DNA of 64,000 bases from an uncultured Syntrophaceae bacterium (GCA_964484485.1 CAZAGD010000065.1:7490-71489), one strand, 5' to 3'; positions 13,977 through 54,399 are shown, counted from the first letter of the stretch. The notes: generated from the letters alone by a model not told the origin. Translations and numbers: made by a program.

Positions 13977-14093
13977 CTTTTACCTCCTTGGCTGAATTTT
14001 AATTTATTCTATATACTCTGCGCAAAAAGTGCAAACAAAAAATTTATTTCTTCTTAATGTCTTACTACACCTTTCTCTGCTGGCGAGAAGAAA

Positions 14094-14143
14094 AGGCTTG
14101 TCGCTTGCTAAGTATAATTCGTAAGGTAAGGGTCTAACTCCCC
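14094..14143. repeat. short repeat D (about 50 bp), copy 1
   Basis: GGCTTGTCGCTTGCTAAGTATAATTCGTAAGGTAAGGGTCTAACTCCCCC is about 80% identical to 15373-15425. Both copies lie immediately 5' of another MITE. Confidence 0.4.
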
Positions 14144-14161
14144 CAAATCCCTCTTAAGTTA

Positions 14162-14395
14162 TTAATCGGAGCAAATAAATATTTACAGTTATCACTCTTA
14201 TCTTACTCCGTGGTCTGGCTTTATCGAGTTTTCCCAATGAAATTTTGTCGTAATTACCCATAAGAAATAAAACGACATGCGGCAAGGGACAAGCACTTGC
14301 CCTACATTTGAGGTTTTTTTAATTTCTCGTAGGGCAAGCCCTTGAGGCTTGCCGAACCACGCATGAAGATGTCGTTTATTTTATGCTCCCATCAA
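14162..14395 (+). mobile_element. MITE family B, copy B1 (234 bp; IS630/Tc1-like TIRs with TA flanks)
   Basis: TIRs TTAATCGGAGCA (14162-14173) and TGCTCCCATCAA (14384-14395), flanked by TA on both sides. Three internal GC-rich hairpins (GGCAAGGG/CCCTTGCC, CTTGCCCTAC/GTAGGGCAAG, GGCAAGCC/GGCTTGCC). About 87% identical over the same 234-bp length to 48794-49027. Confidence 0.6.
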
Positions 14396-14449
14396 TAAAA
14401 GGCGGAAAGGGGGGTTATGAGATGAGGAAAGTTTATGCCGTGTAGGCAG

Positions 14450-15372: not shown

Positions 15373-15425
15373 CCTAAGGTCTTGTCGCTCGCTGGGTATA
15401 ATTCGTAATGTGAAGGTCTAACTCT
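15373..15425. repeat. short repeat D, copy 2
   Basis: GGTCTTGTCGCTCGCTGGGTATAATTCGTAATGTGAAGGTCTAACTCTCCC matches 14094-14143. Confidence 0.4.
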
Positions 15426-15429
15426 CCCT

Positions 15430-15482
15430 CTCTCCCTCCCGCCTGAATTAATCTGGAATTTAAAAACTGATCGACGGTCAGG
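15430..15482 (+). repeat. MITE family C, partial copy C3 (right half only)
   Basis: CTCTCCCTCCCGCCTGAATTAATCTGGAATTTAAAAACTGATCGACGGTCAGG matches the right arm and right TIR of C2 (53600-53662). The left arm is absent. Confidence 0.5.
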
Positions 15483-15495
15483 ACAATTTTTATTA

Positions 15496-15523
15496 TTGAC
15501 AAGCTTGAAAAAATAAGTATTTT
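15496..15523 (+). promoter_or_regulatory. sigma70-like promoter for dctPQM (TTGACA-16-TATTTT)
   Basis: -35 TTGACA at 15496-15501, 14 bp after the MITE-C right TIR. -10 TATTTT at 15518-15523. RBS GGAG lies upstream of 15572. Confidence 0.4.
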
Positions 15524-30159: not shown

Positions 30160-30324
30160 TATCCCCCACTCTCCCCCGTGGTCGGGTGTCAGTAGGACAG
30201 TGTCGGAACGACAATCGTACCGATTCGTCCCGACTCTTATCTACTCTCCCCATGCTTGGGGAGAGGTTTTAGGTTGAGGGGTTAAAAATGGCCAAGGTCA
30301 TTTATTCAATGCTTCTATTAATCA
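30160..30324 (+). mobile_element. MITE family A, copy A1 (5'-truncated; fills the gspF-gspG intergenic space)
   Basis: About 90% identical to 37640-37797 and 44820-44991, including GTCGGAACG...CGTTCCGAC and TCTCCCCA...TGGGGAGA hairpins and the right TIR-like end ATGCTTCTATTAATCA. The left TIR is missing. The element ends at the gspF stop codon. Confidence 0.5.
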
Positions 30325-36009: not shown

Positions 36010-36741
36010 TTGGTCATGGAAGATTACACGCCTTATATTGGTCAATTATTTCAGGAAAAGACAAAATATTTGCGCTCCACCACTGGATCTTCTTGGGCTA
36101 CCCAAAGAGCAGTTGCCTATGATCTTTCACCCAGGAAGATTATTCCTTTACCTAAGCCGCGCTTTGTAAAAGGATTGGATTTTTGGCAAATTCTTAAGCA
36201 GCGGCGCTCAATTCGCGATTACCAAACAGGTTCCCTTTCATTGATTGAGCTGGCTAACCTCCTTTGGGCGACGCAGGGGTTAACTGAGGGAATGGGTTCT
36301 CCCTGGTATCGCACAGTTCCCTCAGCAGGAGCTCTCCACCCCATCGATACTTACTTAGTGATTAATCGGGTTGAGGAAGTGCCTTCCGGGATTTACTATT
36401 TCCAAGTGGAGGATTTTTCTTTGCAGGAGAAAAAAGTAGGGGACTTCTCCCGCCCAATAGCCAGCGCGGCCTTGGGACAAAAAATGGCTATGACCGCCGC
36501 TGTGGTCTTTGTCTGGGTAGCGGTTATCGATCGTTGTCGGCAAAAATATCGTCAGCGAGCTTATCGGTATATTTATTTAGACTGCGGCCACATCGGGCAA
36601 AATCTCTATTTGGCCGCCACGGCTATGAATTTGGGGTGTTGTACTATTGGTGCTTTTTTCGATGACGAAGTAAATGCTCTGATCGAGGTAGACGGTCAGG
36701 AAGAAACCACAATTTATCTGGCCGCTATTGGTAAAATATAA
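36010..36741 (+). CDS. SagB-type dehydrogenase / nitroreductase-family protein
   Basis: 243 aa. RRSIRDY FMN-binding motif and a nitroreductase fold (GCCTIGAFFDDE). Confidence 0.65.
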   Translation: MVMEDYTPYIGQLFQEKTKYLRSTTGSSWATQRAVAYDLSPRKIIPLPKPRFVKGLDFWQILKQRRSIRDYQTGSLSLIELANLLWATQGLTEGMGSPWYRTVPSAGALHPIDTYLVINRVEEVPSGIYYFQVEDFSLQEKKVGDFSRPIASAALGQKMAMTAAVVFVWVAVIDRCRQKYRQRAYRYIYLDCGHIGQNLYLAATAMNLGCCTIGAFFDDEVNALIEVDGQEETTIYLAAIGKI

Positions 36742-37601: not shown

Positions 37602-37795
37602 TTAGGCGGAGCAATTAAATATTTACGCTTAATCCCTTCAACCACCCCCCCTGTGTTCGGGTGTCAGTATGACAGTGTCGGAACGACAATCGTACCGATT
37701 CGTTCCGACTCTTATCGACTCTCCCCAGGCGTGGGGAGAAGGCCAGAATAAAGGGTTAAGAAGGGCACAGGTCATTTATTTAATGCTCCCATTAA
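37602..37795 (+). mobile_element. MITE family A, copy A2 (194 bp; TIR TTAGGCGGAGCA / TGCTCCCATTAA, TA flanks)
   Basis: Complete copy. The 12-bp TIRs are flanked by TA at 37600-37601 and 37796-37797. The internal hairpins are the same as in A1 and A3. Confidence 0.6.
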
Positions 37796-37964
37796 TAATG
37801 CCCAAATTTTACTGGGAATTATTAATTAACGTCAGCAAATTTTGTTAAATTTTAATGTACTTATCGTTTAAATAAGTAGATAAGTTTAGCATAGCAGAAA
37901 ATGGTCATCCTGAAAATAAATATTTTCCCTTATTCTGTCCCAATTTTTCCCCAGATTCTAAAAA

Positions 37965-44589: not shown

Positions 44590-44781
44590 TCCCTTGCCGA
44601 AAAGAGGCAAGCCCTAAGGGCTTGCCCTACGAGAAATTAAAAAAACCTCAAATGTAGGGCAAGGGCTTGTCCCTTGCCGCATTTGGTTTTATTTCTTATA
44701 TGTAATTACGACACAATTTCATTGGGGAAAGTAGATAAAGCCAGACCACGGAGTAAGATAAGAGTGATAGCTGTAAATATT
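44590..44781 (-). mobile_element. MITE family B, copy B3 (reverse orientation, truncated at both ends)
   Basis: The reverse complement matches the B1/B2 core (AAATGCGGCAAGGGACAAGCCCTTGCCCTACATTTGAGGTTTTTTTAATTTCTCGTAGGGCAAGCCCTTAGGGCTTGCC) and the upstream CCGTGGTCTGGCTTTAT...ATGAAATTGTGTCGTAATTAC segment. Its left end abuts the A3 TIR and its right TIR is missing. Confidence 0.5.
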
Positions 44782-44783
44782 TA

Positions 44784-44991
44784 TTACTCGGAGCAATTAA
44801 TTATTTACACTTATGCCCCTCACCCTCCCCCCGTGGTCGGGTGTCAGTATGACAGTGTCGGAACGACAATCGTACCGATTCGTTCCGACTCTTATCGACT
44901 CTCCCCATGCTTGGGGAGAGGGTTAGGGTGAGGGGTTGAAAACGGCGGATGTCATATATTTATTGATCTCATTAATAATTGCTCCCAGTAA
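44784..44991 (+). mobile_element. MITE family A, copy A3 (208 bp; TIR TTACTCGGAGCA / TGCTCCCAGTAA, TA flanks)
   Basis: Near-perfect 12-bp TIRs with TA at 44782-44783 and 44992-44993. Same internal hairpins as A1 and A2. Confidence 0.6.
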
Positions 44992-48670: not shown

Positions 48671-48793
48671 TTTTGGCCCTCCTTTTTTAAAACCTTAGCA
48701 AACTACTTCTCTCCTGCCAAGAGGGAAAAATTTTGACCGCCAAGCGATTTTAATTTTTTAGTCCCTCGGCATAAAGAGGCTCTGGGGCAATTA

Positions 48794-49027
48794 TTAATCG
48801 GAGCAATTAAATATTTACAGTTATCACGCTTATCTTCCTCCATGCTCTGGCTTTGTTTGCTTGCCCCAATGAAATTGTATCTTAATTGCCCATAAGAAAT
48901 GAAACCAAATGCGGCAAGGGACAAGCCCTTCCCCTACATTTGAGGTTTTTTTAATTTCTTGTAGGGCAAGCCCTTGGGGCTTGCCGAACCCCGCATTAAG
49001 ATGTCGTTTATTTTATGCTCCCATTAA
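48794..49027 (+). mobile_element. MITE family B, copy B2 (234 bp; TIR TTAATCGGAGCA / TGCTCCCATTAA, TA flanks)
   Basis: Same length and architecture as B1, with TA at 48792-48793 and 49028-49029. Explains the spurious ORFs 48703-48924 and 49008-49334. Confidence 0.6.
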
Positions 49028-49208
49028 TAACTCTCCTCTGCCCAGCTGGGCACTTGGTCTTAATCAATAAATAGGCTAACTTTCTCCTGGGGTGGAGACT
49101 GTGTCGCCATGAGGGAGGAGGGCCGGAGGCAGGCCAAAAAGGAAACCAGTTGTTTTTTTGTGAAGAAAGAGCTATCCTATGCAAAATTTTTAAGAAAGGA
49201 GGAGTCCC

Positions 49209-53093: not shown

Positions 53094-53332
53094 GACCTAT
53101 ATTTTATCTTTTGGACCTGCCCTCTTGTCAAAGTAAAATTAAATGAGTTCCTTCATCTCCCGTTGGAAGTGATTTTGAACTAAGAGCATAAAGCTACCTT
53201 ATGATCCCGAGAGTGGACCTCCTTGCCTCTTGGGCGACTAAGATTTAGATAAATAGTTAAGTTGGTCCAGGTTAAAAGAAATCTCTGAAAAATCTTTTTA
53301 AAAAATTTGTAGGTCAACTCTTTATAAACCGC

Positions 53333-53425
53333 TTGAGGTAAGGGACAAGCCCTTACCCTACAAATTTATTGGCCAGATGTTTTTTGTAGGGTAATCCCTT
53401 GTGGCCTACCGAATGAATATTAATG
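53333..53425. repeat. degenerate fragment of MITE family B (B4)
   Basis: GGTAAGGGACAAGCCCTTACCCTACAAA...TTTGTAGGGTAATCCCTTGTGGCCTACCGAATGAATATTAATGGGGAACA retains the hairpin architecture and a TIR-like end, at about 65% identity. Confidence 0.35.
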
Positions 53426-53545
53426 GGGAACAATTCCTTATCCTTAGCTCATGTGTCCGTATCTTCCAAGATGGCTCTTTACCTCACTCTCCCGTGCCAG
53501 AGTGTAGTTTATAATCACATTTTTCAAAGGTCTCTTAAAATTACT

Positions 53546-53662
53546 AACCGTCTAACAGTTTTAATATTTCTCGCCAGCAGGAAACAGGCGGGAGGGGGAG
53601 AGGCGAGCCTCTCTTCCTCCCGCCTGAATTAAGCTGAAATTTAAAAAATGATCGACGGTCAG
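53546..53662 (+). mobile_element. MITE family C, copy C2 (117 bp) with 11-bp target-site duplication
   Basis: TIRs aACCGTCtaaCAg ... tgaTCGACGGTcag. Internal hairpin CAGGCGGGAGGGGGAGAGGCGAG/CCTCTCTTCCTCCCGCCTG. Perfect direct repeat TTAAAATTACT at 53535-53545 and 53663-53673. Confidence 0.6.
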
Positions 53663-53674
53663 TTAAAATTACTC

Positions 53675-53748: not shown

Positions 53749-54399
53749 ATGAAAAGAGGGATGATAATTTTTTTAGCAGTCATTTTTTGGGCATCTGTTT
53801 TAAATTTTGGTTGCAGCCAAAAAGTGATGCGCTCCGAAGAAACACCTTACCCCATCTCTCACCAGGAACCCCCAAAAGATACCAGACTTGCGCCGAAAGC
53901 AGTTACGCCCAGCCCACCACCTTCTTTTACCGCACCTGATATAGAAAAACAACGGAAAGATAAACCTTTAAAGGAGGAGACACTGGGAGCTCAGCCTTCC
54001 GCACCTCCACTCCTTAAAGAAGAATTAAAAAAAGAGAAAGAAACCCGCGAGGCAGCTCTAACCAGCATAGAATTAAAATCAATCTTTTTTGATTTTGACC
54101 AGGCCGTCATCAGGGAAGATCAAAAAGAAGTCATGTTGCAAAATGCACAATGGCTCAAAGCTCATCCCCAGGTGCGAGTAAGAATTGAAGGAAACTGTGA
54201 CGAAAGAGGAACAGCAGAATATAACTTAGCCTTAGGGCAGAGAAGAGCAGAAGCGGTAAAGGAATTTTTAGAAGGGCTGGGAATTGCTCCTACACGCATG
54301 CAAACAATTAGCTATGGCTTTGAACGTCCTTTAGACCCCGGTCATAATGAAGAAGCTTGGGCCAAAAATCGGCGAGTTGACTTTACTATTCTTAAATAA
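53749..54399 (+). CDS. pal: OmpA-family peptidoglycan-associated lipoprotein (Pal-like)
   Basis: Lipobox VLNFGC and a Pro-rich linker. C-terminal OmpA domain (NCDERGTAEYNLALGQRRAEAV...NRRV). Confidence 0.8.
   Translation: MKRGMIIFLAVIFWASVLNFGCSQKVMRSEETPYPISHQEPPKDTRLAPKAVTPSPPPSFTAPDIEKQRKDKPLKEETLGAQPSAPPLLKEELKKEKETREAALTSIELKSIFFDFDQAVIREDQKEVMLQNAQWLKAHPQVRVRIEGNCDERGTAEYNLALGQRRAEAVKEFLEGLGIAPTRMQTISYGFERPLDPGHNEEAWAKNRRVDFTILK

Follow-up and report, generated by a model that had tools for sequence, protein, structure and literature searches.

What kind of element parts an OmpA/Pal-like gene and its promoter from the DNA further upstream, and why does it lie exactly there? The question is raised by C2, a short repeat in the 64,000-nucleotide stretch of an uncultured Syntrophaceae genome that was analyzed as a whole (the window; 43% GC, with rpsA, cmk, gatCA, the OmpA/Pal-like gene, HU and ETF genes among its genes). 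A sequence-only reading had assigned C2, a copy upstream of cmk (C1) and a half copy to a MITE family of their own, family C.

The hairpin and the imperfect TIRs containing ACCGTC, on which this assignment was based, are present in the window sequence where they had been placed. CAGGCGGGAGG occurs five times in the window versus 0.8 expected, ACCGTCTAACAGTTTTAATATTTCTC occurs twice versus 0 expected, and the left halves of C1 and C2 are 96% identical over 51 nt. As single-stranded DNA, C2 folds into one long hairpin (-31.1 kcal/mol, z = -7.25). The half copy, expected near 15430-15482, was confirmed with slightly shifted borders; a TTGACA (15496-15501) is found 14 nt past its end, instead of the usual 12. 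C1, C2 and the half copy belong to one MITE family, in which the whole element is hairpin-forming (Table 1). A match to the end motif GACGGTCAG at 36691-36699 was also considered as a family-C end, and rejected as a chance match inside an ORF.

Table 1. Family-C copies, their flanks and the adjacent promoters and genes in the window.
Feature	Position	Strand	Remarks
cmk	3676-4380	-	
-35-like hexamer TTGATT (4/6)	4426..4431	-	3 bp past the duplication of C1, upstream of cmk
C1 target duplication ATTTTTGGC, promoter-proximal side	4435..4443	+	
C1, MITE copy	4444..4600	-	157 bp; true right end at 4444, true left end at 4600
C1 target duplication ATTTTTGGC, distal side	4601..4609	+	
Solo end remnant TTGACCGTTCATCAGTTTTTT, predates C1	4610..4630	+	old right end, opposite-strand reading
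Half copy, right arm and right end only	15427..15481	+	93% to C2
Possible decayed right-end remnant cacatttttcaaaGGTCTC	53516..53534	+	abuts the distal duplication of C2; 5/9 match to end motif; low confidence
Left 9-bp target duplication of C2, TTAAAATTA	53535..53543	+	
C2, short-form MITE	53544..53662	+	119 bp; left end CTAACCGTCTAACAG, right end TGATCGACGGTCAG
GC-rich 19-bp stem of C2	about 53585-53626		
Right 9-bp target duplication of C2, TTAAAATTA	53663..53671	+	
-35 hexamer TTGACA by C2	53675..53680	+	3 bp (CTC) past the duplication; promoter also conserved in L124
-10 hexamer TATAAT by C2	53696..53701	+	by eye; 15-nt spacer, short/unusual
OmpA/Pal-like gene served by the C2-side promoter	53749-54399		

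Two details of the earlier description had to be revised. C2 had been framed as ...TTAAAATTACT / AACCGTC...GACGGTCAG / TTAAAATTACT (slashes mark the element borders), with a target duplication of 11 bp. The duplication is really 9 bp, in the layout ctc TTAAAATTA / CTAACCGTCTAACAG...TGATCGACGGTCAG / TTAAAATTA ctc TTGACA. The extra CT is formed by the first two bases of the left end of C2 (CTAACCGTC, versus YTGACCGTC in the family), which match the next two target bases by chance. C1 is opposite in orientation to C2 and flanked by a 9-bp direct repeat, as claimed. It reads ATTTTTGGC / CTGACCGTC...GACGGTCAA / ATTTTTGGC, followed by TTGACCGTTCATCAG at 4610-4624 (in longer form, ATTTTTGGC / CTGACCGTCGATCAC...TAGACGGTCAA / ATTTTTGGC). 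C1 and C2 have each arisen from a 293-bp palindromic master by a different internal deletion. Of the master's right (subterminal) arm, C1 merely keeps about 40 nt more than C2, so that the loop insertion of roughly 40 bp that had been proposed for C1 does not exist.

The master form was recognized in related genomes. GTDB species genomes, a collection outside which the window's own genome lies, were scanned with a pattern consisting of an end plus an arm. The sole matching genome was the Thermodesulfobacteriota MAG JBNAWB01 (Kamchatka), with 59 loci. Their right ends are nearly identical and mostly located at contig ends, as is typical when a recent high-copy repeat breaks short-read assemblies, and at least 62 unique right-end flanks were found in this MAG. 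A similar pattern identified 89 loci in JGI metagenomes, including contigs of the window's own sample. The comparison data are all metagenome or MAG assemblies.

Altogether, we found 41 unique full copies with flanking 9-mers that match at 8-9 of 9 positions, as anticipated for a mobile MITE family with target-site duplications. Tabulated over both window copies and these 41, the duplication is 9 bp throughout, and the 9-mer is different at every site. All copies have ends of the form YTGACCGTC...GACGGTCAG, and in some MAG copies the TIR is perfect over 14 bp. Full-copy lengths cluster at 107-119, 131-166, 243-244 and 291-295 bp, the last of these being the master, a long imperfect palindrome of 293 bp according to the alignment. 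In the short forms (C2 with 119 bp, C1 with 157 bp, range 107-166 bp), the interior between the GC-rich arms is missing in comparison with the master. The MITE copy in locus L008 lies between two genes and has no ORF of 80 aa or more. At one insertion site, with flanks that are 100% identical, the element measures 114 bp in L064:1266-1379 and L117:1103-1216 and 293 bp in L099:10752-11044, which implies either shortening in place (deletion across the palindrome) or replacement of one copy by another.

Related contigs also contain sites without the element. The comparison with empty sites that had been recommended for the duplications was run, and it gives a single 9-mer at the sites of both C1 and C2. 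L112:5225-5355 is 93% identical to the window around C1 and its C1 site is unoccupied (...CAATTA ATTTTTGGC CTGACCGTTCAGCAG TTTTTTGGCC...), the left and right flanks of C1 overlapping by exactly 9 bp. This unoccupied site has a single ATTTTTGGC and already carries the solo end CTGACCGTTCAGCAG. It follows that C1 arrived by insertion, with duplication of ATTTTTGGC, and that the solo end is older, just as the sequence-only reading had suspected of the TIR-like sequence next to C1. In L124, the orthologous promoter of C2 has the 9-mer once (...ACCGGTCAG TAAAAATTA CTC TTGACAGCTTTGCTAGTAAGATATAATC...). L124 is colinear with the window from the 9-mer onward, and its upstream DNA is rearranged by other elements. 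L149 and L073 form a further pair of occupied and unoccupied sites.

Strains without C2 were also sought by an exact-protein look-up of the Pal-like gene, which returned the same strain only, in contigs 99.95-100% identical to the window (JGI 3300010284, ENA ERZ27245602), all with C2. Another element of about 210 bp (L124:4743-4955, ends like TTATTAAAGGGTGGATT...AATCCACCCTTCAGTGA) was noticed at the orthologous promoter of C2. On one side of it is a family-C copy truncated at its 5' end, on the other a decayed right end of family C, and the intergenic region is a nest of insertions.

There is no transposase within the 64-kb window. The sequence-only reading had postulated a separate transposase class for family C and had suggested a search for a full-length insertion sequence with the same TIRs. 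Such an element was met on comparing the region of the half copy with its relative L072. It is 1597 bp long (L072:6782-8378) and its ends are CTGACCGTCTAACACTTTTGG and, as reverse complement, CTGACCGTCTATCACTTTTGG. Full elements of 1.55-1.6 kb are present in related metagenome contigs and share the first 19-20 nt of both ends with the MITE, which is the only sequence common to the two. Hence, a distinct transposase class with family-C ends does exist in related contigs, and it belongs to the IS4 family. Two longer intervals between ends (2.5 kb in L012; 4.1 kb with a 9-of-9 A-rich repeat in L129) were rejected as full elements, as they have ordinary genes inside. An all-against-all BLAST of the fetched loci for repeated segments longer than 500 bp found orthologous regions only, and no full-element copies.

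The transposase is encoded in one ORF (371 aa), which is preceded by a conserved upstream OrfA of 109 aa with a match to Pfam DUF6788 (E = 1.9e-12). OrfA overlaps the transposase start by ATGA in L072 and was called next to the transposase in other loci. The transposase matches NCBIfam NF033591 (IS4 family transposase, IS4_2) with E = 5.9e-37 over profile positions 14-322 of 340. The score of 127.5 bits is below the curated cut-off of 152, and the match to Pfam PF01609 (DDE_Tnp_1) is weak (21.1 versus a cut-off of 23). Judged from sequence, such sub-cut-off scores are those of a divergent branch of the IS4 family. The members of this family have D(60-110)D(100-150)E spacing, a Y(2)R(3)E(6)K motif, a single transposase ORF and a target duplication of about one helical turn (8-13 bp), which is 9 bp in the IS10 and IS50 subgroups (PMC2266710). 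In our protein, the DDE triad (D96, D161, E264; spacers 64 and 102) is invariant in 35 homologues. The YREK motif reads Y257 D R R260 M A I E264 E Q I R D T K271, with R260, E264 and K271 invariant and Y257 at least 90% conserved in the same homologues. The duplication of the full element is 9 bp, the same as for the MITE.

The AlphaFold model of the transposase (pLDDT 89.4) was used for a Foldseek search, in which the Tn5 inhibitor (1B7E) was the top and only hit with E <= 0.001 (E = 3.4e-5, probability 1.00, 312 aligned columns, TM 0.45). A phmmer search of the PDB with the transposase sequence gave no hit. The OrfA model (pLDDT 86) consists of a helix, three strands and a long helix; a fold search with this model gave no informative match.

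In the protein database, we found 584 homologues of the transposase (E <= 1e-5) and 132 homologues of OrfA (E <= 0.001). The contigs of most of those listed measure about 1.6 kb, as would be anticipated if the element is multi-copy, and at least 7 gene contexts share an identical transposase protein. The full copy nearest to the window, in L187, is 76% identical and has a perfect 9-bp duplication; L187 and a 100%-identical twin contig of the window are from the same ENA assembly, a co-occurrence at the level of the assembly only. The shared ends suggest that the MITE is mobilized by the IS4-family transposase, which would be supplied in trans and would carry out a strand transfer with a 9-bp stagger, as in Tn5 and Tn10.

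In L152, L165 and L188, the full element is flanked by two unlike 9-mers, each of them at a canonical junction, and the partner junctions lie on other contigs (for example, the left junction of L159 goes with the right junction of L152). Either the assembly has formed chimeras through the repeat, or copies have recombined with each other, so some junction pairs were rebuilt across contigs. GGCAAATAA was seen at left-end junctions in both orientations (L152, L158).

The copies are placed in a fixed register relative to promoters. In 29 of the 41 MITE copies, at least five of the six positions of TTGACA are matched at offset 12, i.e., exactly 3 bp past the duplicated 9-mer (at the right end in 18, at the left end in 11, on both sides in none; 18 hexamers are perfect). 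No other offset in the scanned range of 0-39 was found in more than 3 copies, and random positions in the same loci gave 0.7%. Most of the 12 copies without a five-of-six match have TTGAnn, and C1 has TTGATT. Among 99 unique right-end flanks, TTGAC was found exactly 12 nt after the end in 32, and in 10 further flanks the end of another element follows directly after the 9-mer (TGAC at offset 10).

For the full element, the hexamer is present at the offset in 22 of 43 unique junction flanks, which is the half that is expected if every insertion has one promoter side. When full-element insertions were rebuilt from matching 9-mers, the hexamer was present on one side and absent from the other in 8 of 9, and the remaining insertion had TTGCCT. 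Both the MITE and the full element are thus located by a promoter on one side only, and in either orientation. The register is kept across transposases that are 54-100% identical, and also in GC-rich hosts (for example, ACCTGACCC cag TTGACA), so that AT-richness of the 9-mer is not the determinant.

On the promoter side, there is a second signal, T-A-a-a-a-T, at flank positions 36-41, 17 bp after the hexamer, which was not selected for in the scoring. A -10 match of at least 4/6 was present in 22 of the 29 copies, and in 23 of the 29 an ORF starts downstream, 52-324 nt into the flank. The hexamer is a genuine -35 box, and the sites are ordinary sigma-70-type promoters. From the general layout of promoters, we take the duplicated 9-mer to lie roughly at -47 to -39, in the proximal UP-element region. 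The promoter scan tool considers spacers of 16-18 nt only, and the TATAAT next to C2 was not called. A recurring TTTTTCAGAG on distal flanks was discarded as a second target signal, as it resembles by eye the T-tail of upstream terminators and is found at variable distance.

We are confident that family C represents non-autonomous MITEs of an IS4-family insertion sequence with a 9-bp duplication, placed 3 bp upstream of a -35 hexamer.

Sites that were hit again show the order of events. There, the older copy or remnant is separated from the -35 box by the newer copy. A decayed end or a neighboring element abuts the duplication in 9 copies, and it does so only on the side away from the -35 box (cases include L008, L024, L032, L077 and L132). 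The same arrangement is found for C1, with its weak hexamer, and probably also for C2, as its distal flank (...AAAGGTCTC) appears to correspond to the junction ...ACCGGTCAG in L124. In L081, a full element is located between a 119-bp MITE and the promoter, where L068 still shows AGTAAAAAG tat TTGACT. This polarity of stacking is predicted by repeated choice of the 9-mer that ends 3 bp short of the -35 box, and is predicted neither by survivorship nor by attraction to element ends.

As to how the site is chosen, we give roughly even chances to direct read-out of the TTGAC hexamer by a protein that the element itself would encode. OrfA is the prime adaptor candidate, because it is the feature that the clade has added to the standard IS4 layout; it is conserved in the clade and absent from the one copy of the relative ISTth2 that was examined.

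Somewhat unlikely, but the strongest rival, is tethering, in which the transposase or OrfA would dock on sigma-70 region 4 or on the alpha C-terminal domain of promoter-bound RNA polymerase. Integration would then occur into bent DNA just upstream and TTGACA would be an indirect mark, in parallel to Ty3 at Pol III genes. Docking would fit with the completeness of the promoters at almost every occupied site, where a -10 box lies at 16-18 bp and a gene follows downstream, and with a 9-mer that presumably lies in the proximal UP-element region. Insertion in either orientation is also expected if the asymmetry comes from the target, and targeting is kept in hosts of very different GC content. However, TTGAC is essentially invariant among the scored sites, and tighter than in usual -35 boxes, although the scoring selected on the hexamer. 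A background comparison was meant to separate DNA read-out from polymerase tethering. In this comparison, the -10 box was not significantly commoner at occupied sites than at unoccupied intergenic TTGAC(A/T) sites (14/24 versus 43/106, p = 0.17). With rather more doubt than confidence, we extend promoter-directed integration to the whole IS4-family clade and its MITEs, in which the DUF6788 OrfA or the transposase may read the -35 hexamer, possibly via sigma-70 or RNA polymerase.

It is improbable that the transposase targets the -35 box as a likeness of its own tip, YTGACC, and would thus also target real resident ends. Insertions of IS30 and IS911 are drawn to element ends, the tip (CTGACC or TTGACC) agrees with TTGACA at 4-5 of 6 positions, and many copies, including C1, lie beside other copies or solo ends. 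Yet adjacent ends start directly after the 9-mer (10 cases) and never at the 3-bp spacing of TTGACA, as predicted by repeated use of one promoter-defined 9-mer, and the remnants are always located away from the -35 box, a polarity that the likeness does not predict.

Even less credit is due to the explanation that insertion is random or AT-biased, and that only harmless intergenic copies persist. The data do consist of fixed, surviving insertions only, intergenic placement is expected under purifying selection, and the duplicated 9-mers are AT-rich in AT-rich hosts. But selection cannot yield a register of a single nucleotide, and the scan has one spike only, at offset 12. Moreover, identical sites are hit repeatedly, with ordered stacking, and in GC-rich hosts the full element keeps the register with GC-rich 9-mers.

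Finally, an immobile module (a conserved promoter-upstream hairpin, terminator or small RNA gene, with the repeats belonging to a longer local repeat) is hardly conceivable in spite of the strong hairpin and the constant position relative to promoters, as presence varies between 93%-identical relatives with exactly one 9-mer when unoccupied, the 9-mers differ at every site, a transposase-encoding element has the same ends, an Rfam scan of the window matched no family, and no terminator was called on C2, whose stem is without a T-run after it.

If family C is placed by an IS4-family transposase next to the -35 hexamer, as we prefer, insertion would occur just upstream of the core promoter, and the 9 bp by the -35 box would be kept via the duplication, so that genes and promoters are likely spared. 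Such sparing would permit a high copy number, and could explain 60 or more MITE copies in a small genome without wrecked genes. Every insertion would mark a sigma-70-type promoter in uncultured thermophiles. The promoter is parted from upstream activator and UP-element DNA by 110-1600 bp, and regulation may be rewired.

A MITE of a divergent IS4-family element is a known kind of object, and the target rule is the new part. The partner element resembles the IS50 and IS10 subgroups (Tn5, Tn10) in its YREK DDE transposase, the D(64)D(102)E spacing, the 9-bp duplication and ends that start with 5'-CT. The best structural match of the transposase is the Tn5 inhibitor 1B7E, and its identity to named IS4 transposases is only about 25-30%. 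Of the 7 positions conserved in the IS50 end consensus CW------Y---CA-A--W- (PMC2266710, Table 1), 6 are matched by the end CTGACCGTCGATCAGTTTT. The partner element differs from the IS4 norm by the additional upstream OrfA (DUF6788) and by an asymmetric target choice that is keyed to the -35 hexamer. IS10 and IS50 have short symmetric hot-spot consensuses as targets.

The nearest named relative found is ISTth2 from Thermus thermophilus (annotated as IS4-like), with 29% identity over 79% of the transposase. The end of ISTth2 (CTGAGTTCTCATCACTTT) and that of the clade (CTGACCGTCTATCACTTTT, or CTGA......ATCACTTT) have a related architecture. In the single copy examined (L193:571-1746 on HB27 plasmid pTT27, 1176 bp, with the perfect 9-bp duplication GTCCTCCAG), the ends enclose no OrfA, and TTGACA is not found at the 3-bp distance.

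Correia elements of Neisseria are likewise short, non-coding, high-copy, intergenic and hairpin-forming, have TIRs and duplications, and are moved in trans. They duplicate TA or short -10-like strings (PMC9330008). Correia elements can create promoters, whereas family C leaves the promoter intact, is set by the -35 box and has a 9-bp duplication.

Safe-haven elements include Tn7 at attTn7, the IS1202 group at XerCD sites, and IS231 at Tn4430 ends. Further examples are IS1111 and IS110 elements at REP or attC sites (PMC11187229). Like family C, safe-haven transposons avoid harm by homing to a defined feature outside genes. They differ from it in being led by an RNA guide or confined to a single site or a small number of special sites in each genome, whereas the feature recognized by family C is a generic -35 hexamer, so that there are potentially hundreds of sites per genome. 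Most bacterial insertion sequences are loose in their target choice, and the precise ones depend, to our knowledge, on rare special sites or an RNA guide. If true, homing with single-base register to a generic -35 hexamer would amount to a safe-haven strategy of another kind.

Integration of yeast Ty3 (and Ty1 and Tf1) is likewise promoter-keyed and takes place at a set distance ahead of a transcription unit. The analogy is functional only, as these are eukaryotic LTR retrotransposons that are tethered by transcription factors and have no homology to family C. If promoter-directed integration is true of the clade, Ty3-type promoter targeting would have a counterpart among bacterial DDE transposons, undescribed in the literature searched. 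This search, of partial coverage, found nothing relevant on -35-directed transposon targeting, DUF6788 or MITEs in Thermodesulfobacteriota; that placement by the -35 hexamer at single-base register is undescribed there for a bacterial transposon is weak evidence of novelty. Whether the DUF6788 accessory protein or RNA polymerase directs a Tn5-like transposase is a testable question, and if the read-out is between protein and DNA, it could be adapted for promoter-proximal insertion. For family C itself, the anatomy is now corrected: the duplication measures 9 bp, the shorter forms derive by deletion from a 293-bp master, and the partner element is identified.

The window contains other repeats as well. 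Another MITE-like family (about 240 bp; copies 89-93% identical) is found at 14159-14398 and 48791-49030 (+) and at 44606-44785 (-). Its ends are TTATTAATCGGAGCA...TGCTCC-ATCAATAA, and it is probably family A or B of the sequence-only reading. Direct repeats of 153 nt, 70-86% identical, are located at 30172-30324, 37647-37799 and 44827-44979, and adjoin TTATTA...GGAGCAAT repeat units. An inverted repeat (GGTAAGGGACAAGCCCTTACCCTACAAA / TTTGTAGGGTAATCCCTTGTGGCCTACC) lies at 53326-53410, about 130 bp upstream of C2, and its left arm belongs to a short repeat family also present at 14270, 44595 and 48902. A 53-nt repeat (CTTGTCGCTyGCT..GTATAATTCGTAAkGT.AGGGTCTAACTCyCCC) occurs at 14092-14144 and 15376-15428; one copy abuts the other MITE family, and the other is located exactly at the truncation of the family-C half copy.
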